39,761 nucleotides of DNA. Source: Escherichia phage APC_JM3.2. Position numbers and translations under genes: made by a program. Location: sequence record MG197996.1; one strand, written 5' to 3'. Position 1 is the stretch's first letter. Each line of letters opens with the position of its first letter. Positions 9,214 to 29,603 of this stretch are shown piece by piece. The notes under the pieces are model-generated. The model made no database searches. It was not told the origin of the DNA and worked only from the letters and a program-made list of their open reading frames with translations.

Positions 9214-9356
9214 TATCTGAATTTCACAGCGCATCTCACGCGCATATTAACGAGAGCCTTTCAGTAAGCGAGCCTGAGAAATGCCGTTATAGGTGGCGAC
9301 CTCTCTCGGGCGGCTTTTCTGTGAGACAGGCTCACTTTCTAAAAGGTAAAGACGCT

Positions 9357-9875
9357 ATGAATCATCAATTGGCTAATCTCGATTTCCGGGACATGGTGGT
9401 TGTTTCTGGTGATCGCGTGATCACAACCTCCCGCAAGGTAGCAGCTTACTTCGACAAGCAGCATCACCACATCATTCAGAAAATCGAAAAGCTAGACTGT
9501 TCGGATGAATTTCTAACCAGCAACTTTTCGCGGGTTACCTATGAACACAAGGGTAATCAGTATGTTGAATATGAAATTTCCAAAGACGGTGCGATGTACA
9601 TCATCATGTCGTTTACCGGCAAAAAAGCTGCCGCCATCAAAGAGGCGTTTATCAAAGCATTTAATTGGATGCGTGACAGGCTGATGGAGATGGCTCACTC
9701 ATACCAAAGAGAGCACAACGAGTTAATGCTGGAGTTCATGAAGGAAAAGGATGTTGCCAGTATGTCAGGACGCTTGCTGAACCGCTGGGGCAGGATCAAA
9801 AAACCGCAACTCATAGCAAGAATCGAAAGGCTTGAGCAGCAGGCGCAAATATCGATCCCCGGACTGCCAAAGTGA
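9357..9875 (+). CDS. rha: Rha-family phage regulatory protein
   Basis: MNHQLANLDFRDMVVVSGDRVITTSRKVAAYFDKQHHHIIQKIE... resembles Rha/ORF6N-type N-terminal domain; alternative GTG start at 9321. Confidence 0.7.
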   Translation: MNHQLANLDFRDMVVVSGDRVITTSRKVAAYFDKQHHHIIQKIEKLDCSDEFLTSNFSRVTYEHKGNQYVEYEISKDGAMYIIMSFTGKKAAAIKEAFIKAFNWMRDRLMEMAHSYQREHNELMLEFMKEKDVASMSGRLLNRWGRIKKPQLIARIERLEQQAQISIPGLPK

Positions 9876-20266: not shown

Positions 20267-20962
20267 ATGTTATATGCATTTAAGCTGGGCAGAAAACTGC
20301 GCGGCGAGGAACCTTATTGCCCTGAAAAGGGTGGGAAAGGTGGCAGTTCTGATAAAAGCGCAAAGTATGCCGCAGAAGCTCAGAAGTATGAAGCAGACCT
20401 GCAAAATCAGCAGTGGCAGACGATCATGAAAAACCTTGCTCCGTTCACGCCTCTTGCAGAGCAGTATGTTAACCAGTTGCAGAATCTTTCCAGTTTAGAA
20501 GGTCAGGGGCAGGCACTTAATCAGTATTACAACTCTCAGCAGTATAAAGACCTTGCAGGTCAGGCGCGTTACCAGAGTCTTGCTGCTGCGGAGGCGACGG
20601 GTGGACTTGGTTCGACAGCCACAAGCAATCAACTGGCTACGATCGCGCCTACACTCGGTCAGTCTTGGTTATCAAACCAGATGAGCAATTACAACAATCT
20701 GGCAAACGTTGGGCTTGGTGCTCTGCAAGGTCAGGCAAACGCCGGGCAGACGTACGCCAACAACATGAGCAGCATTGCACAGCAAAGCGCAGCTCTTGCC
20801 GCTGCTAATGCCAATAAACCATCAGGCCTTCAGACAGCAATTAGCGGCGGAGCTTCAGGGGCTATGACTGGCGCTGCTCTTGGCTCTATTGTTCCCGGAC
20901 TTGGCACTGGATTAGGTGCGGCAATTGGCGGCGGACTTGGCCTGCTTGGATCGTTGTTTTAA
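20267..20962 (+). CDS. 7: Ejection (internal virion) protein, gp7 type
   Basis: 231-aa ORF with Q/N/A/G-rich low-complexity body and glycine-rich hydrophobic C-terminus. Confidence 0.8.
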   Translation: MLYAFKLGRKLRGEEPYCPEKGGKGGSSDKSAKYAAEAQKYEADLQNQQWQTIMKNLAPFTPLAEQYVNQLQNLSSLEGQGQALNQYYNSQQYKDLAGQARYQSLAAAEATGGLGSTATSNQLATIAPTLGQSWLSNQMSNYNNLANVGLGALQGQANAGQTYANNMSSIAQQSAALAAANANKPSGLQTAISGGASGAMTGAALGSIVPGLGTGLGAAIGGGLGLLGSLF

Positions 20963-20971
20963 GGGGTAATC

Positions 20972-22303
20972 ATGGCTACTTGGCAAGGAACAAATGGCGG
21001 ATTGTTGGCTGGTATCGGTGGTGTCAACTCAAACGCTCCGAGCGTAAATGACATCGGCAACACGCTTCAGCTTATCAGGCAGAACAATGATATTGAGCGT
21101 TCAGGCGCTAACAATGTTGGGCTGACAGCTTTGCAAGGTCTTTCTGGTATTGCGGGGGTGTTTCAGCAGGAAAAGCAGGCTCAGCGGCAGAAAGAATTTC
21201 AGCAGGCATACGCTAATGCTTATGCGTCTGGTGATCGCGGTGCTTTGCGTCAGTTGGCTACTCAATATCCAGAACAGATTGAATCCGTTCGTAAAGGCAT
21301 GGGATTCATTGATGAAGAGCAGCGTAATTCTATCGGCACCTTAGCGGCTGGCGCACGCCTTGCGTCATCGTCTCCAGAAGCAATGCAATCATGGCTGCAA
21401 AACAACGCCGGTGAGTTAGCTCGTGTTGGCGTTAATCCTCATGACGTCGCTCAGATGTACCAACAGAACCCGCGGCAGTTCGGCGAATTTGTCGATCACC
21501 TGGGGATGAACAGTCTCGGGCCCGAAAAATACTTTGACCTACAGGATAAAATGCAGGGTCGCCAGGTTACCATGCGCGGTCAGGATCTGGATTCGCAAAC
21601 CGCCGCTCGGAATCAGGCAATCACAATGCGCGGACAAGATATCCAGGCGAATTTAGGTCAGCAGCGCATTAATCTGGACGCAGAAACAAACCGCATTAAC
21701 AACGAAAATAAGCGCCTTGACCGGATGCTATCAGCAGAAACTAACGACCTGAAGCGCCAGGAAATACAGAGCCGCATAGCAGCCAACAACCAGCAGTTGC
21801 AGCAGAAGCAGCAAGCGCTAAATGATGGCTACAAAGACGGCATCAACACCCTCACAACCAGCATGTTCACTCTGAACGATATCGTTAGTTCTCCTTCACT
21901 TAAGAGCATTACAGGCTTACGTGGAGTAATCCCCAACGTTCCAGGCTCACAGGCTGCAGACACTCAGGCACGACTTGATACCTTTAAATCACAAGCATAC
22001 CTAACAGCGGTTCAGGCCATGCGAGGCATGGGCGCACTTTCTGATGCCGAGGGCAAAAAGCTCGACCAGGCTGTTGGTTCGCTGCAGAACTCGCAGAGCG
22101 AGGAGTCCTTTCGTCGCAACGCTGGCGTCATCCTGAACACGCTCAACCAGAAGCGTAATGAGGCGGTTGGTAAGTACGTTCAGCAAAACGGGATCAAGCG
22201 AGTGGAAGCGCCTCAGGCTTCTATAGATTACCTGAAGCAGCACCCCGAGCTGTCAATCGACTTCATTAATCGCTACGGATATCTTCCATCTTTGGGGCAG
22301 TAA
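20972..22303 (+). CDS. 20: Ejection protein, gp20 type
   Basis: 443-aa ORF in conserved position; Q/R-rich coiled regions. Confidence 0.7.
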   Translation: MATWQGTNGGLLAGIGGVNSNAPSVNDIGNTLQLIRQNNDIERSGANNVGLTALQGLSGIAGVFQQEKQAQRQKEFQQAYANAYASGDRGALRQLATQYPEQIESVRKGMGFIDEEQRNSIGTLAAGARLASSSPEAMQSWLQNNAGELARVGVNPHDVAQMYQQNPRQFGEFVDHLGMNSLGPEKYFDLQDKMQGRQVTMRGQDLDSQTAARNQAITMRGQDIQANLGQQRINLDAETNRINNENKRLDRMLSAETNDLKRQEIQSRIAANNQQLQQKQQALNDGYKDGINTLTTSMFTLNDIVSSPSLKSITGLRGVIPNVPGSQAADTQARLDTFKSQAYLTAVQAMRGMGALSDAEGKKLDQAVGSLQNSQSEESFRRNAGVILNTLNQKRNEAVGKYVQQNGIKRVEAPQASIDYLKQHPELSIDFINRYGYLPSLGQ

Positions 22304-25039
22304 ATGGCTAATTACCGTGATTTGTTAGAGCAGGCTGGCGCACGTTACGGTGTGCCAGAAGGGTTGATGACTGCACTGGGTGCCAAGGAGTCTTCTTACA
22401 ACCCTGCCGCAGTAAGCTCCGCAGGGGCTGTAGGATTGACTCAGGTCATGCCTGGGACATGGCGTGATATGGGTTATACCGATGAGCAAATGCAAAACCC
22501 CGAATATCAGGCTGACGCTGGCGCGCGCTATCTGGCAAAGATGTACCAGCAGTTTGGTAACTGGCGTGATGCTCTTCAGGCTTATCACGACGGTCCCGGC
22601 AACGTTATGAAGGCAAAGCGTGGTGAATATACGCCAGGACCTGAAGGCCGCGGTTACGTTGATGATCGCTTTGCTCAATGGGCGGGTGACCCGGTGACAG
22701 ACTCAACAGTCGAACAGCGCGCCACCTCTGCAAAGGTACATCCTCAGCAAGACCCTAACAACCCGTTTGCACAACTGGAAGCACAGTCATCCGAACAAGT
22801 ATCGGCATCAGGCGTGCAGTCAGACCCAAATAATCCATTTGCTCAGATTGAGCAGCAGGCAGCCAGTCAGCAGCCACCTCAACCAGTAAGTTCTGTCGCA
22901 CCGAAACCTGTTCAGCAACAAACAGTTAATCAGGCCAATAATGAACCAGCACGTGAAGAACCATCATTGATGCAACAAGCTGGCGATTGGCTCACAGGTG
23001 GTCAAAGTGCAGGGCAAATTGCAGAGCAGGTTGGTCGTGGTCTGGTAAACATACCATTTGACGTATTGCAGGGTGGCGCAAGTCTGATTAATGCAATCAG
23101 CCAGGGGCTTGGTGGCCCCAAGGTTTTGGACGATGTCTATCGTCCAGTAGAACGACCGACAGATCCTTATGCGCAAGCTGGAGAGTCAATAGGCGGTTAT
23201 CTTGTTCCTGGGGCAGGAGTAGCTGGAAACATGGTCATTGGTTCTCTCGCTGACGCGGCGAATCAACGGGGTGATTTTGCCGAAAATGCTGCTATTAATG
23301 CCGGACTTAACATTGCTACGCATGGCCTGATAAATGGCGTTACCCTTGGTGTTCGTGGTGCATCAAATATAATTAGTGGCAATAAAACATCTGCACAGAG
23401 AGCGACCACTGCGGCAACAGAAACATCACCATTCTCCGGTGATACCGCTGCAGCAACAAATCCTGCGGTTCATGCCGCAGAGGCAAGAGTAGCACAAGGT
23501 GTACCAATGACGCCTGCGACGAGGAACCCAGAGGAAGTCGTTCGCACAGTAGCAGCACAAAAAAGGCCAAATCTCGCTTCATCGCTTGATGAACTAGATA
23601 TCAATCCTCAGGCTGAAGTTCTGGAGTCTGCTGAAAGGCTTAATGTTGATTCATTACTCCCTTCACACTTTTCCGGGAACGAGCAATACAAGGCAGTTGA
23701 GCAAGCAATCAAGTCCCGTGCGGGTTCTGCTCTACAGGTGCAGGAAAATGAAGCAATCAGGCAGCTAGCACAGGGCGCGGGGGAGATAATTGATCGCGTT
23801 TCCGGTGCAAAAGATGCTCTTGGTATGAGCGACAAGTTTATTGATACGGTCAATGGAAGAATGTCTGCGCTGATGAAACGAAGCGACCAGCTTTATCGCA
23901 ATGTTGAAAAGGCGATGCCTGCAGGTGCAAAAATTGATGCGCCATCAACAAGGTCAATGCTCAAACAGGTGGCAGAAGATCTTGGCGGGATGAAAAACCT
24001 TGACCCTATTGAAAAGAGAGTCTTTCGGGCAGTTAATCCAGGTAAGAACGGCGCATTAACTTATGCAAATCTCAATAAGCAACGACGACTTGTTGGTGAT
24101 GCACTTCATAAGAATTCTGGACCATATAAAGATGCTGATCGCGCTGCTTTATCGAGGCTTTACGGTTCGCTCGCCGATGATCAAAAGGCGGCGCTGTCAG
24201 AGACAAATGCATTACGTGATTTTGAAGTTGCTCAGAGGCTTGTTCAGATGCGAAAAAGCATGGAAGAGCAAATGATTAATCTAACTGGCAGAACGCTGAA
24301 CGGTGATGTTTCTCGCAAAGCAACTACAGCACTACAGGCAATGTCGAAAGGCGATGCCAAAGGATTTCGTGAATTGATGCAAAACACGCCGTCCAGGAAG
24401 CTAAGAACCGAGCTACTGGGAACAGGTCTTCGGGATATGCTTTCGAACGGAAAACGTGGCGCTGATTTTAATCCTGCAGGGTTTGCTGATTGGTATCAAA
24501 ACATGTTAGCAAACGGGCAGATGCGCAACCTTGCCCGACATTTACCAAAAGAGACTATGTCAGGTCTGAACGATGTATATAAGGTCGCAAAGGCTATCAA
24601 AGACGCAAAATCTTACGAGATAACTACAGGAAGACTAAACGAGTTCGTCAAACGGTTTAATCGCGTCACTGCGGCAAATGAATTTGTTGCTAACCATGCC
24701 CAACGCATTGGCACTGCGGTTGGTTCAACTGTGTCAGGACCGTTCAGTGCAGTAGGTGCTGTTGCTGGGTCAGAAATTGGGGCAAAAGTCGCCAGCAAAA
24801 TCAGGGCGATGGGCGGCGCTGCATCAATGGAATCTGCAGAAAAGCTAATTAGCTCACCAGAATTCCAGAAAGCAGCAAGGCTGGCAGTAAAACAAGCACC
24901 AGAAAGCATCGTTGATACAACTGTAAGACGCTCTTCTGCTTGGCGCTCGTTTTACAACTCACTTCCAGAATCAGATAAGAAAACCATATCAAGGCTAGGC
25001 ATCATGTACTGGATGAACAGTGATAATAACCAGAAGTAA
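22304..25039 (+). CDS. Ejection protein (gp16 position) with N-terminal soluble lytic transglycosylase domain
   Basis: 911-aa ORF; N-terminus [38 protein letters not shown]... is an SLT-type motif (E-S-S-Y, GLTQ); internal DPNNPFAQ duplication. Confidence 0.8.
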
Positions 25040-25317
25040 CGGAAAGCCACGGATGGTTAGTTGCAGTCTTTTTTATATAAATCTCTGTCCATAAATCCTC
25101 CTGTTTACCAAAACTATATCAAACTTTAACGCAATGCTGCGCAACTTAAGTGACTGTCAGGTTGATAACAGACACTCTTTTTTGCATGATTCCTTTAGAC
25201 CATCACAATTGATGAAGAATCATGAAAAGAAGAACTCTTCTAAAGTCTTTGCTCGGCCTGACGTCACTCTTACCAGTTAAGTTTGCAGCATCTCAAAACC
25301 TGCAAGGTAAAAGTATA

Positions 25318-27216
25318 ATGTCAGACATTACACCCAATGTTGTAGTGAGTATGCCTTCGCAACTCTTCACTATGGCTCGTTCTTTTAAAGCCGTAGCTAA
25401 TGGAAAGATTTATATCGGGAAAATTGACGCTGACCCGGTAAACACTGAAAACCAGATTCAGGTTTATGTAGAGAACGAAGATGGTTCTCACGTTCCTGTT
25501 TCGCAACCAATCATCATTAACGCTGCTGGATATCCGGTATATAACGGACAGATTGCTAAATTCGTTACCGTGCAAGGCCATTCTATGGCTGTTTATGATG
25601 CCTATGGTGCTCAGCAATTCTATTTCCCAAACGTGCTGAAGTATGACCCGGACCAGGCATTGCCAGCATTTAAGGCTGATTTGACTGGTCCTGATGGTGC
25701 TGCCCTTGTTGGTTATGGAGATTCCACTGTCGAGGCAGAGTTAGACATCCTGACTGCATCTAATGGGTGGTACGTAACTCCTGATCAGTTCGGCGCGAAG
25801 GGTGATGGCACTACCGATGACACAGCGGCGATTAGTGCGGCAATTGCTGAGTGTGCTTCTACAGGGAAAACATTGCTCCTGCTTAATAAACGCTATGTGT
25901 GGAATGGGCCAACCACATCCACCGATAAAATATCCGTTATGGGAGTCCGTCGCCCAAGTCCTGACGCGACGCTATCCAAGCTGGAAAACGGCAGCATCAT
26001 TGTCGGTACCATGATATTTTCCGGAACTCGTGTTCAGGTGCAAAACTTTGGTGTAGACCACGGTTCAGCCACATTCACTTCTGGTGGTGATGCGCTAGTG
26101 CTTTCCGCAACTGGAAAGAATGGGCTGTTTGGTATCATCCGAAACTGTGTAGGTCTTGGAAGAAACTCATCTGACGCTTACCATGCAATTCTCTGTGAGG
26201 GTTACAAATACTCAACGGTGAGAGATATCATTGGCTGCCAGAACTTATATGGCTATGCACAGAAATGTAATTATTCCGTATCAAGCGGTATTGTAGTAAA
26301 AAACAACCAAAACGGAATAATCATCAAATCAGACAGTGTATTTGGCGATGGAAGCCAATCAATTCTTAGTGATGCTGTTATTGATGGTAATGGATTAACA
26401 TCTATTGGCGTTTGGGTTTTCTCGATGGATGCACAACTTCAAAAAGTAAACATAAGTAACGTGACCTCGTCTGGTTGCTCTTATGATATCGTGGTGCAGG
26501 CTGCTGAGAGCGTCATTAATGAAATTAATATTAATAACGTAGCTACGAGTTTATCACGCATTGCATCAATCTGCCTGGCTGGAACTGCAGTTGATAAAAT
26601 TTACACAGCCAATATCAGCAATGTTGCTATAGGTGAAGCAGCGGGACTGCTAATAGATGCCCAGACATGTAACTTCCTTAACCTGACAAACGTAACTGGA
26701 CGAATAACAAACGAATCAACGCATGCTAACGACTCAATAAACATTGGAGCATTAGTAGGAAGCTCTAACATTAGCAACGTGTTCCCTACCATCAACTACA
26801 GTCAGGATGTACTTGCTGGCATTACCTATCTTAATAACTATAAAAACAACACGCTTACCAATTATAAGGCGAACGTGTTTGGTGTTGGGGCTCCGAAACC
26901 AGGTTACGACACGCAAAACATTGATACCAATGTCGGAAGCATGTACCTGAGGAGCAGTGCAACTAACTCTTCATTCCTGAGGTTAACGCCACTTAGTAAC
27001 TCATCCATTACGACGCTTAACATCACCACTCAAGCAGGTGGAGTGATAAGCCCGGGTTACACATGGTGGTTACAAAACGCATCACCATCATTCACGCTGT
27101 CTATAGTTCCATCATCAGGAGGTCACATCGTCACTTCAGGCAACTCTACCAAGGTGCTTAGCGGTGGAGACAAGATAGGATTCATGTTCGACGGAGAGAC
27201 ATGGATTCAGATTTGA
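25318..27216 (+). CDS. Tailspike protein: conserved P22-family head-binding domain plus divergent right-handed beta-helix receptor domain
   Basis: N-terminus [34 protein letters not shown]... (P22-family tailspike head-binding domain); downstream [15 protein letters not shown] motif typical of pectate-lyase-fold depolymerases. Confidence 0.85.
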
Positions 27217-27484
27217 TGATGCAGCCATGGATGGCTACATGAATGGGTGGTGCTTGTTTACGAAGTAAACCAGAAGCACAAACGCGACGATGTTAATTGC
27301 AACTACAATTTTGCTATTCATCAGTGACCCCTATAGGTAGGTAAAGTTAGAGTCTCATTGATTTCCATGTACATTCAAGTCTCCATGGTCTTGCGTGTCT
27401 ATCATTCAGTCTTACACTCGTACTTCTACCACTCAAAAAATTCCCTATACGCATTCGCCTGCTTAGCAAAAGCATACTCCATTC

Positions 27485-27532
27485 TTGTTGAACTCCGCCA
27501 CCTACAAATAATTACTGTATGTGCATGCAGCG
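27485..27532 (+). promoter_or_regulatory. Candidate sigma70 promoter with overlapping LexA-like (SOS) box upstream of the UmuD'-like gene
   Basis: -35 TTGTTG 27485-27490, 17-nt spacer, -10 ATAATT 27508-27513; TACTGTATGTGCATGCAG 27513-27530 has CTG-N10-CAG and a perfect TACTGTAT left half. Confidence 0.4.
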
Positions 27533-27549
27533 ATTATCGGAGGTGCATC

Positions 27550-27846
27550 ATGGGATTCCCCAGTCCTGCACAAGACTGCATAGAGGAGCACATATCGATC
27601 GACAAGCGCATCATATCGAGGCCAGTGGCTACCTACTTCATGAAAACGGGGGCAACACACTACCGGGAAGGCATCCTAAGTGGCGCTCTCTTTGCCGTTG
27701 ATGCATCTTTGAACCCATGTGATGGCTCATTGCTGGTTTGTGCAACTGATGGTGAGTTCAGAATTAAGCGTTACCTGACATACCCGCAACCGCATCTGGA
27801 AAATCTGGATAACGGAAAGAGGGAGAGGATTCCTGACAAGAATTAG
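27550..27846 (+). CDS. UmuD'-like (peptidase S24 fold) protein lacking the catalytic serine, C-terminally shortened
   Basis: 98-aa ORF, GGAGGT RBS 7 nt upstream; MGFPSPAQDCIEE..PVATYF..DGEFRIKRY aligns by eye to E. coli UmuD from Gly25 (the UmuD' N-terminus); GDSM serine site replaced by ATHY. Confidence 0.65.
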   Translation: MGFPSPAQDCIEEHISIDKRIISRPVATYFMKTGATHYREGILSGALFAVDASLNPCDGSLLVCATDGEFRIKRYLTYPQPHLENLDNGKRERIPDKN

Positions 27847-27951
27847 GCCTCTGAGACTTCTCGACCTGTATTTGTGGTGATCACCTACATCATCAACGAT
27901 GCGCGTGCAGGTTAGTTTGATGACTACCCGCTGAAGTGAAAATTGTGTTGT

Positions 27952-28245
27952 GTACCAAATTGCGTACCAAACTAAAATCACAAATCATGAAACCCTTGTT
28001 CATGGCGGTTCTCAGGGGTGTTGCGCGTAATCGTGAAAGAGGAAGGTAGGTTGTTTATCTGTGTCTGTCATTGTCTAGCATTGTCCACTGTAGTTAATTA
28101 ACTGTATGTTATAACTCGAAAAACAACCCTTTTTTAACCTGAGTATGTCTACGAACGTCAAATATAGTTGTTTACTGTGCGCTGTTGTCCATGTGATATT
28201 GTGTACCAGATGTGTACCAAACTATTATTTCTGAGCGTACCAAAT
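27952..28245. repeat. attP: attP-like region with five direct arm-type repeats GTACCA(A/G)A(T/C) upstream of int
   Basis: GTACCAAAT 27952-27960, GTACCAAAC 27964-27972, GTACCAGAT 28203-28211, GTACCAAAC 28214-28222, GTACCAAAT 28237-28245. Confidence 0.45.
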
Positions 28246-28252
28246 ATTATTT

Positions 28253-29431
28253 ATGGCTATAAGCGACACAAAACTGCGTACTATTTATGGTAAACCATAT
28301 TCGGGCCCACAAGAAGTGGCTGATGCCGATGGCCTCAGCGTACGAATTTCACCGAAGGGGGTCATCCAGTTCCAGTACCGCTATCGCTGGCATGGCAAGC
28401 CTAATCGACTTGGGCTTGGTCGATACCCATCCCTGTCTTTGAAGGATGCCAGACAGATCACTGCTGACTTGCGAAAGCTCTATTTCTCAGGAACGGATCC
28501 ACGCACTTATTTTGAAGAGAAGGTGGAGAACTCCATGACGGTCGCCCAGTGTCTTGACTACTGGTTCGACAACTACGTCTCTACAACTCTCAGAGAAAAG
28601 ACCCAGGCACTTTACCGATCAACGGTTATGAAGCGCATGCATGACGCCTTTCCTAATCGTCCGGCATCTTCTATCACGGTTAAGCAATGGGTTGACCTGC
28701 TTACCGAAGAAGAAAGAGATAATCCACGCCGAGCAAGGCAGGTGCTAAGCCAACTAAGATCAGCAATAAGTTGGTGCATGCGGCGTCAGTTGATAGATAG
28801 TTGCGCAATTATGAGCATCCAACCAAGGGACTTCGGCTCCCGCGCTGAGGTAGGGGATCGGGTACTGTCGTATCACGAACTGGCTAAGATTTGGCTTGCT
28901 ATTGAAAGAAGCCGTGCGTCTACCTCAAATAAGCTACTTCATCAGATGCTTATGCTGTGGGGGGCGAGGCTCTCAGAGCTTAGGCTGGCAAAAAAGACAG
29001 AATTTGACCTACTGGAAAACGTATGGACCGTACCGAAAGAGCATAGCAAGATGGGTAATGTTATCCGCCGTCCAATCTTCGAACAAATTAAGCCTTTCCT
29101 CGAAAAGGCCATGACAACGTACAATGATGTTCTTTTCTCTGGAGAAGACATAAACAAACCGATCAGCATCGCTGCAGCCAACCGATTCGTAAATAGAATA
29201 AGGGGAGGGATGGATCTCGGTTACTGGCGAACACACGATTTCAGAAGAACGCTTGTTACACGTCTGTCCGAGATGAATGTCGAGCCTCATGTTACTGAGC
29301 GAATGCTCGGTCATGAACTTGGCGGGATAATGTCCGTATACAATAAACACGACTGGATAGAGGCTCAGCGCAAAGCGTATGAGCTTCACGCTGATAAATT
29401 GTTCTGGCACATCAGGAGCATTTCTGATTAA
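28253..29431 (+). CDS. int: Tyrosine integrase (arm-binding N-terminal domain, P4/CP4-57-like)
   Basis: 392-aa ORF; N-terminal DGLSVRISPKGVIQFQYRYRW... arm-binding type; C-terminal catalytic region with HDFRRT and VYNKH (catalytic Tyr). Confidence 0.9.
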   Translation: MAISDTKLRTIYGKPYSGPQEVADADGLSVRISPKGVIQFQYRYRWHGKPNRLGLGRYPSLSLKDARQITADLRKLYFSGTDPRTYFEEKVENSMTVAQCLDYWFDNYVSTTLREKTQALYRSTVMKRMHDAFPNRPASSITVKQWVDLLTEEERDNPRRARQVLSQLRSAISWCMRRQLIDSCAIMSIQPRDFGSRAEVGDRVLSYHELAKIWLAIERSRASTSNKLLHQMLMLWGARLSELRLAKKTEFDLLENVWTVPKEHSKMGNVIRRPIFEQIKPFLEKAMTTYNDVLFSGEDINKPISIAAANRFVNRIRGGMDLGYWRTHDFRRTLVTRLSEMNVEPHVTERMLGHELGGIMSVYNKHDWIEAQRKAYELHADKLFWHIRSISD

Positions 29432-29603
29432 CGCCACCGTTAAGAATCCACCCCTCAACAGCTTCACGAAGGTATGATTTGGGGTGGGTTCTGACTGGCT
29501 TCGGAAATCCGTGCCGTTTGGTATAGTTCCAGATTGTCTGACGTGATGAAACACCGAGCTTGTTCATCACTTCTTTCTCAGGAATCAGGCTGGTATCGGT
29601 CAT
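29412..29603 (-). CDS. xis: Excisionase / AlpA-family DNA-binding protein
   Basis: 63-aa ORF KEVMNKLGVSSRQTIWNYTKRHGFPKPV... (AlpA-type HTH); converges on and overlaps int 3' end by 20 nt; GGAG RBS. Confidence 0.75.
   Translation of the reverse strand: MTDTSLIPEKEVMNKLGVSSRQTIWNYTKRHGFPKPVRTHPKSYLREAVEGWILNGGVNQKCS

Follow-up and report, generated by a model that had tools for sequence, protein, structure and literature searches.

Which surface polysaccharide does the tailspike of Escherichia phage APC_JM3.2 recognize, and is its receptor domain new? The phage sequence (record MG197996.1; 39,761 nucleotides of one strand, 5' to 3', hereafter the window) carries at positions 25318-27216, plus strand, a gene that an earlier, sequence-only reading had described as a tailspike with a conserved head-binding domain and an exchanged receptor domain. 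We found the architecture as described and the gene less novel than that description implied. The protein is very probably a gene-9-type tailspike of a temperate P22-like (Lederbergvirus) Escherichia coli phage, specific for the O16 O-antigen. It is an already described and genetically characterized O16-type Lederbergvirus module, here located on a new mosaic genome.

Domain architecture and start codon

The first 113 residues (25318-25656, plus strand) form a head-binding, or tail-attachment, domain of the P22 type. They match the whole 113-position profile of the Pfam family PF09008 (Head_binding; E = 8e-66, 219.8 bits against a cut-off of 24) and are 73% identical to residues 1-113 of P22 gp9, which bears out this part of the sequence-only reading. 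Identity to the head-binding domains of Sf6, HK620, and other E. coli and Shigella Lederbergvirus spikes is 83-95%, and matches in the PDB include Sf6 gp14 (7sg7) and P22 gp9 (8tvr, 2xc1, 1lkt). The gene shares with Sf6 gp14, HK620 gp9 and P22 gp9 (structures 7sg7, 2vji and 8tvr/2xc1) not only this domain but also the gene position and the beta-helix fold class.

The end of the conserved part shows at both the DNA and the protein level. DNA homology (85-93%) to HK620, Sf6, CUS-3 and other Lederbergviruses ends at nucleotides 339-349 of the gene, corresponding to residues 113-116, and from residue 117 onward two unrelated phages, Bas82 and Bas105, have homologous receptor domains. Past residue 113 no similarity to P22 gp9 was detectable, and the receptor domain lies outside the P22 endorhamnosidase family. 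A polysaccharide specificity distinct from that of P22 is to be expected, as had been predicted. The two parts are joined by a linker or neck of residues 114-149 (25657-25764, plus strand), where the predicted local distance difference test (pLDDT) score falls below 50 for model residues 1-31 and a short helix is placed at 25-32.

The longest open reading frame at the locus is that of 25222-27216 on the plus strand (664 residues), and an internal ATG at 25318 gives a protein of 632 residues that begins MSDIT; both end at a double stop, TGA TGA, the first of which is 27214-27216. Position 25318 is the likely true start, because it aligns with position 1 of PF09008 and with residue 1 of both P22 gp9 and Sf6 gp14, and because RefSeq holds the 632-residue form, under the name 'phage tailspike protein'. 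A purine-rich AAGG also lies about ten bases 5' of this ATG. The longer start is used in the GenBank coding sequences of phages Bas106, Huey, Dewey and Louie, and several E. coli entries of 663-664 residues, named 'hypothetical protein', begin there as well. The start at 25222 is probably mis-called, with the 32 added residues looking like a chance extension. The in-frame 32-codon stretch itself (25222-25317, plus strand) has a signal-peptide-like look.

Near-identical spikes of O16-dependent phages

Over its full length, the gene is 98.9-99.2% identical in DNA and 97.8-97.9% identical in protein to the tailspikes of four phages published in 2025, CurroJimenez (Bas106; PQ850599), Huey (PQ850609), Dewey (PQ850600) and Louie (PQ850616), and the DNA of its head-binding domain is 100% identical to theirs. 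They are Lederbergviruses, and the host used for their isolation was E. coli K-12 with its O16 O-antigen restored (Humolli et al. 2025, PMC11990801; Maffei et al. 2025, PMC12243541). All four form plaques only on K-12 with restored O16, and their receptor was determined genetically (PMC12243541, PMC11990801); Bas106 'totally depends' on O16 expression (PMC11990801). At 97.8-97.9% identity, the receptor domain is in substance that of a characterized spike whose receptor is known from genetics, and the novelty implied by the sequence-only reading does not hold. The comparison gives the phage, from its sequence alone, a probable receptor, the O16 O-antigen, which is the native O-antigen of E. coli K-12.

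The four published spikes share with the window spike a length of 632 residues when counted from MSDIT, the two-part architecture, a location right after a gp16-type gene, and the lack of an immI region. Their surroundings differ, in that the rest of each genome is another mosaic and the integrase module is not the same. The gp16-like gene of the window matches Huey and Dewey only at 22304-23202, and Bas106 and Louie only at 22955-23202. Within the phage collection, the closest whole-genome relative is IME10, which covers only 68% of the first 25 kb.

The receptor module (residues 117-632) also recurs in phages of other kinds, with 53% identity in Bas82 and the Kayfunavirus Bas105 and 34% in Bas70-73 and Bas77-80. 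The receptor domains of these phages are homologous to that of the window, but they are borne on other N-terminal anchors and other virion types, and close relatives carry PF18668/PF25692 as anchors rather than PF09008. The O16-targeting tailspikes of small siphoviruses, Bas105, Bas96 and Bas106 have been described as homologous, with a pectin-lyase-like domain and variable anchors (PMC11990801); for the relatives at 53% and 34% identity, O16 targeting is a statement made for the collection and not phage by phage. By homology, the window receptor domain belongs with those of phages shown to need O16.

Fold of the receptor domain

The earlier reading proposed structure prediction and a structure search as a check, and both bear out a beta-helix receptor domain. 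An AlphaFold2 monomer model built on a 68-sequence alignment of homologues reached a pLDDT of 92 and a predicted template modeling (pTM) score of 0.86; it replaced a poor model from a 9-sequence alignment (pLDDT 70, weak Foldseek matches). The model has a disordered neck (residues 115-149), a long right-handed parallel beta-helix to about residue 525, and a small C-terminal beta domain. The beta-helix, the receptor-binding and predicted catalytic domain, occupies 25765-26892 (plus strand; residues 150-525, boundaries approximate) and the C-terminal domain 26893-27216 (plus strand; residues 526-632). A cap motif lies at 25789-25833 (plus strand; residues 158-172), and the Sf6 tailspike has a degenerate form of it (DFGVIDDGVTDNYQAI).

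The sequence-only reading had described a switch, after about 110 residues, to a pectate-lyase-type beta-helix unlike that of P22. The change of sequence and the cap motif are both present; however, the P22 receptor domain is a right-handed beta-helix as well. The swap therefore replaced one sequence family by an unrelated one and left the fold class unchanged.

No solved structure related by sequence to the receptor domain was found in the PDB. A search with a family profile gave only marginal local matches, to rhamnogalacturonase A (1rmg; E = 4e-8) and glycoside hydrolase family GH87. The Foldseek neighbors are likewise related at the level of the fold, with 13-17% identity and other substrates: the A-module of the mannuronan C5-epimerase AlgE4 (2pyg), the GH87 alpha-1,3-glucanase 7c7d, the Det7 tailspike (6f7k) and phi29 gp12 (3gq7). 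Many of the other top structural matches are glycoside hydrolases (GH87, GH110, GH28). No catalytic motif common to the receptor domain and the AlgE4, GH87, Det7 and phi29 gp12 neighbors could be established. The family of the receptor domain itself is moderately large, with 438 representatives at E ≤ 0.001, of which 47 remain at E ≤ 1e-30. Across 68 members, the polar residues D247, H289, E294, K316, K337, S338 and D339 are invariant or nearly so. They appear to sit on successive rungs of the helix, and D247, E294 and D339 are candidate catalytic residues.

Specificity and predicted activity

The receptor domain is predicted to be a hydrolytic endoglycosidase in which two or three of the conserved carboxylates would be catalytic. 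The O16 repeat is built of galactofuranose, glucose, rhamnose and N-acetylglucosamine, with a glucose branch and an O-acetyl group. To our knowledge, the repeat contains no uronic acid, and on this basis lyase or epimerase chemistry, which acts on a carboxylate-bearing sugar, is ruled out and hydrolysis is the activity we infer. The tailspikes of P22 and HK620 are endoglycosidases, and the same activity is annotated in database records for Sf6 and CUS-3. For the window spike, which was modeled as a monomer, endoglycosidase activity and assembly into a homotrimer are both predictions.

Several observations weigh against an O16-specific hydrolase. The match of residues 157-410 to PF12708 (Pect-lyase_RHGA_epim, or pectate lyase 3) scores 23.4 bits (E = 5.9e-5), under the curated cut-off of 27; homologues of 53-55% identity (P0002-P0004) carry a precomputed match to this family. 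The best structural neighbor, AlgE4 at 17% identity, is an epimerase and not a hydrolase, and enzymatic activity of the O16 spike group is a prediction in the papers that describe it (PMC11990801, PMC12243541). DNA of the receptor domain (25660-27216) had no match by megablast or blastn in 5,426 complete RefSeq E. coli genomes, so that these genomes provide no lysogen whose serogroup would link the domain to O16. The 13-14 amino acid differences from the published spikes all fall in the receptor part, between residues 129 and 627, and eight residues are private to the window allele (T200, I325, M370, S398, T410, L412, L444 and E627). Lastly, the proportion of non-synonymous changes is unusually high for such close relatives.

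Recognition of O16 without cleavage of its backbone, by binding only or by an esterase- or epimerase-like modification, is an unlikely reading, to which the O-acetylation of O16 and the C5-epimerase as best structural match lend some weight. The lack of a uronic acid rules out the epimerase form of it, known deacetylating spikes use an SGNH domain of which neither Pfam nor PHROG profiles found any trace in the window spike, and the spikes of the other Lederbergviruses, P22, Sf6, HK620 and CUS-3, as well as the many glycoside hydrolases among the structural matches, argue for cleavage. We therefore retain a hydrolytic endoglycosidase as the predicted activity.

The differences between alleles bear on the identity of the glycan. 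Compared with the four phages, the tailspike shows ratios of non-synonymous to synonymous changes of 13:2 to 13:6, and the neighboring gene 12:28 and 3:22 (Fisher p = 0.01 and 4e-6 against the tailspike), although all these counts are small. Such ratios suggest that the receptor domain is under diversifying selection or relaxed constraint, and a shifted fine specificity is therefore conceivable. It is nevertheless quite improbable that the 13-14 substitutions have retargeted the allele to a related glycan, such as O17, which is related in structure, or a side-chain variant of O16. The confinement of all changes to residues 129-627, next to a head-binding domain of identical DNA, would fit such a shift, as would the precedent of Sf6, whose host range shifts by point mutations in the tailspike according to the title of a paper cited in PMC12243541 (ref. 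6). The window spike is, however, 98% identical to the published ones, and none of the 13-18 substitutions relative to the published spikes and a prophage homologue touches a conserved polar residue, the candidate active-site residues included. In addition, relatives of only 53% and 34% identity from the same collection are described as O16-targeting homologues, so that the specificity looks robust to sequence change. O16 thus remains the most probable receptor of this allele. As an observation in itself, nearly all differences among these 99%-identical alleles change an amino acid, and the adjacent gene shows the usual synonymous excess.

Colanic acid as substrate is very improbable: the full-length match to PHROG 8280 ('tail spike protein with colonic acid degradation activity', E = 1.4e-208), the same note attached to the GenBank entries for Bas106, Huey, Dewey and Louie, and the phi92 colanidase gp150 as top Foldseek match of the poor 9-sequence model all point to it, but the label is transferred text that is contradicted by the O16 dependence of those very phages.

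As an O16-specific endoglycosidase, the spike would work much as its relatives do. Residues 1-113 would attach it to the tail hub in the way known from the homotrimeric spikes of P22 and Sf6. Beyond a short flexible neck, the beta-helix (about residues 150-525) and the small C-terminal domain would bind the O16 polysaccharide, and by hydrolysis the beta-helix would open a path for the virion to the outer membrane. There the needle would take over, together with the ejection proteins, which would include the gp7-like and gp20-like proteins and the SLT-gp16 fusion encoded just upstream.

There is some chance, which we rate as rather low, that the receptor domain represents a glycoside hydrolase family never before characterized in biochemistry or structure, cutting O16 at an unusual linkage such as that of galactofuranose, and that the excess of amino acid changes reflects ongoing selection on fine specificity. 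The idea of such a family arises because the PDB contains no relative of the domain by sequence and the closest match in fold, with 17% identity, is an epimerase. A first biochemical and structural characterization of the O16 spike group could draw on this allele and its natural variants. Otherwise the significance of the result beyond annotation is small, and the gene itself is no discovery; for the databases, it corrects the transferred label of colanic acid degradation and the over-long start codon in several records.

The tailspike cassette and the loss of immI

The interval between the gp16-like gene and the tailspike was estimated earlier at about 280 bp and measures 278 bp (25040-25317). 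The sieA/mnt/arc/ant block of P22 is absent, as the sequence-only reading had it: besides the shortness of the gap, tblastn with P22 SieA, Orf59a, Mnt, Arc, Ant and GtrA/B/C gave no credible match in the whole 39.8-kb window. The O-antigen conversion module is thus absent along with immI. Between the spike and the integrase (27217-29603) there is also no gtrABC or oac, unlike in P22 and Sf6.

A deletion scar lies at the 5' end of the gap (25040-25087). It holds, on the minus strand, the 3' end of an mnt-like repressor gene, with the stop at the complement of 25057-25059 and the last seven codons (LYKKDCN, followed by the stop) at 25060-25080; the junction follows. At 25040-25079, the first 40 bp past the stop of the upstream gene match the 3' end of the phage Sf101 mnt-type gene with 95% identity. 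The simplest history is that the ancestor lost its immI region by deletion, leaving only these last seven mnt-like codons. A 74-bp stretch with the mnt remnant is present in the window and absent from Bas106, Huey, Dewey and Louie.

A 204-bp leader occupies the 3' part of the gap (25114-25317, plus strand) and moves together with the tailspike gene, as a single cassette. Bas106, Huey, Dewey and Louie carry this leader unchanged (100% identity), and no other phage record contains it. The leader has a single, weak promoter-like site (25162-25190), fewer than in shuffled sequence. No terminator was found in the 278-bp gap or past the tailspike stop, where hairpins are unremarkable (z = -1.5), and neither region gave a credible match to an Rfam family (such as sar) or a tRNA. 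The cassette common to the window and the four published phages at 99% extends from 25114 to 27253, and in Huey and the prophage L005 it reaches 27929. Many E. coli prophages carry nearly identical copies, as do at least five phage genomes that are otherwise mosaic. The gene would thus travel as a cassette of the leader and the whole gene, sometimes together with a decayed humD-like gene.

Among E. coli assemblies, the window spike falls in a 184-member cluster at 90% identity (P0001, including WP_244565951.1 and QLR86846.1), some RefSeq entries of which are named 'phage tailspike protein'. Receptor-domain identity between the window and this prophage cluster is 96-97%. The 184 members, one of them on a 4.8-Mb contig, contrast with the zero matches in 5,426 complete genomes.

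The closest prophage relative is L005 (GCA_037012965.1), located next to the bio operon and uvrB. It has in common with the window the SLT-gp16 gene for the 911-residue protein (98.4% identical) and the spike block through the humD-like gene (98.7%). It differs by 713 bp of extra DNA between gp16 and the spike and by 18 amino acid differences in the spike, including one deletion; owing to this one-codon deletion, the L005 spike was compared as a protein alignment only. The extra DNA contains (at L005 9114-9708), on the minus strand, an intact gene of the Arc/Mnt family (86 residues), together with a 70-codon fragment of another head-binding domain, only 60% identical to that of the window. We read this stretch as a fossil of whole-gene tailspike replacement rather than of exchange at the domain boundary. 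In a first step, a complete tailspike cassette would have been inserted into an older tailspike gene, giving the state of L005; a later deletion would have removed mnt and the old head-binding fragment, giving the state of the window. The comparison with L005 thereby shows stepwise module replacement in P22-like phages, and the clean scar documents the loss of immI.

Such a loss is ordinary in the genus, because Sf6 has no immI, with a gap of 164 bp between gene 13 (gp16-type) and the spike, and HK620 is annotated with remnants only of mnt and ant; in CUS-3, both mnt and ant are still present. The 'bsq1 boundary sequence' of CUS-3 was considered as a junction for the domain swap and dropped, as it lies upstream of the spike, between ant and the spike gene.

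Surrounding genes

The gene order of gp7-like, gp20-like, gp16-like, tailspike and integrase is that of P22, and places the tailspike at the end of the late operon. The gp7-like gene (20267-20962) encodes a protein 80% identical to P22 gp7, and the gp20-like gene (20972-22303) was recognized by a profile match (Inj_translocase). The gp16-like gene of the sequence-only reading (22304-25039, plus strand) does contain a gp16-like part, but its product is not a plain gp16: the ejection ('DNA transfer') protein of 911 residues has an SLT lytic transglycosylase domain fused at its N-terminus (residues 7-110; Pfam E = 3e-25). P22 gp16 (609 residues) aligns only through its residues 34-177, at 75% identity to 22889-23338 of the window (about residues 196-345), and the remainder, the C-terminal two-thirds, is divergent. 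PHROG 770 ('DNA transfer protein') nevertheless spans residues 108-864, and the 98%-identical L005 homologue of 911 residues has precomputed matches to PF01464 and PF26808 (Phage_P22_gp16). The SLT-gp16 fusion is common in E. coli prophages. A similar layout is known from the T7 internal ejection protein gp16, which carries a transglycosylase domain.

Within the late-region leader, 9327-9866 (plus strand) encodes a protein homologous to the Rha anti-repressor-like protein of P22 (44% identity over 188 residues). No other antirepressor-type gene of P22 was detected in the window.

Downstream of the spike lies a HumD/UmuD'-like gene with an in-frame stop (27550-27846, plus strand), which matches NCBIfam NF051876 (HumD) at positions 1-97 of 129 with 142.6 bits (cut-off 120). 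It belongs to the block common to the window, Huey and L005 (to 27929) and not to the tailspike. Its start falls exactly at the UmuD' processing point (MGFPSPA...), and the region matching the catalytic serine motif (GDSM in UmuD) reads GATHY. Beyond the stop (27844-27846), a UmuD-like C-terminus (PVFVVITYIINDA) continues in the same frame to 27915. Judged by its annotated gene end, Huey seemingly has the same stop; Bas106, Dewey and Louie keep only a 3' remnant (27715-27929). The gene is probably a decaying moron. It is followed by a tyrosine integrase (28253-29431, plus strand), which faces a small open reading frame on the minus strand (29412-29603). The latter has, by eye only, the look of an AlpA/excisionase-type gene, in an orientation unlike that of int-xis in P22.

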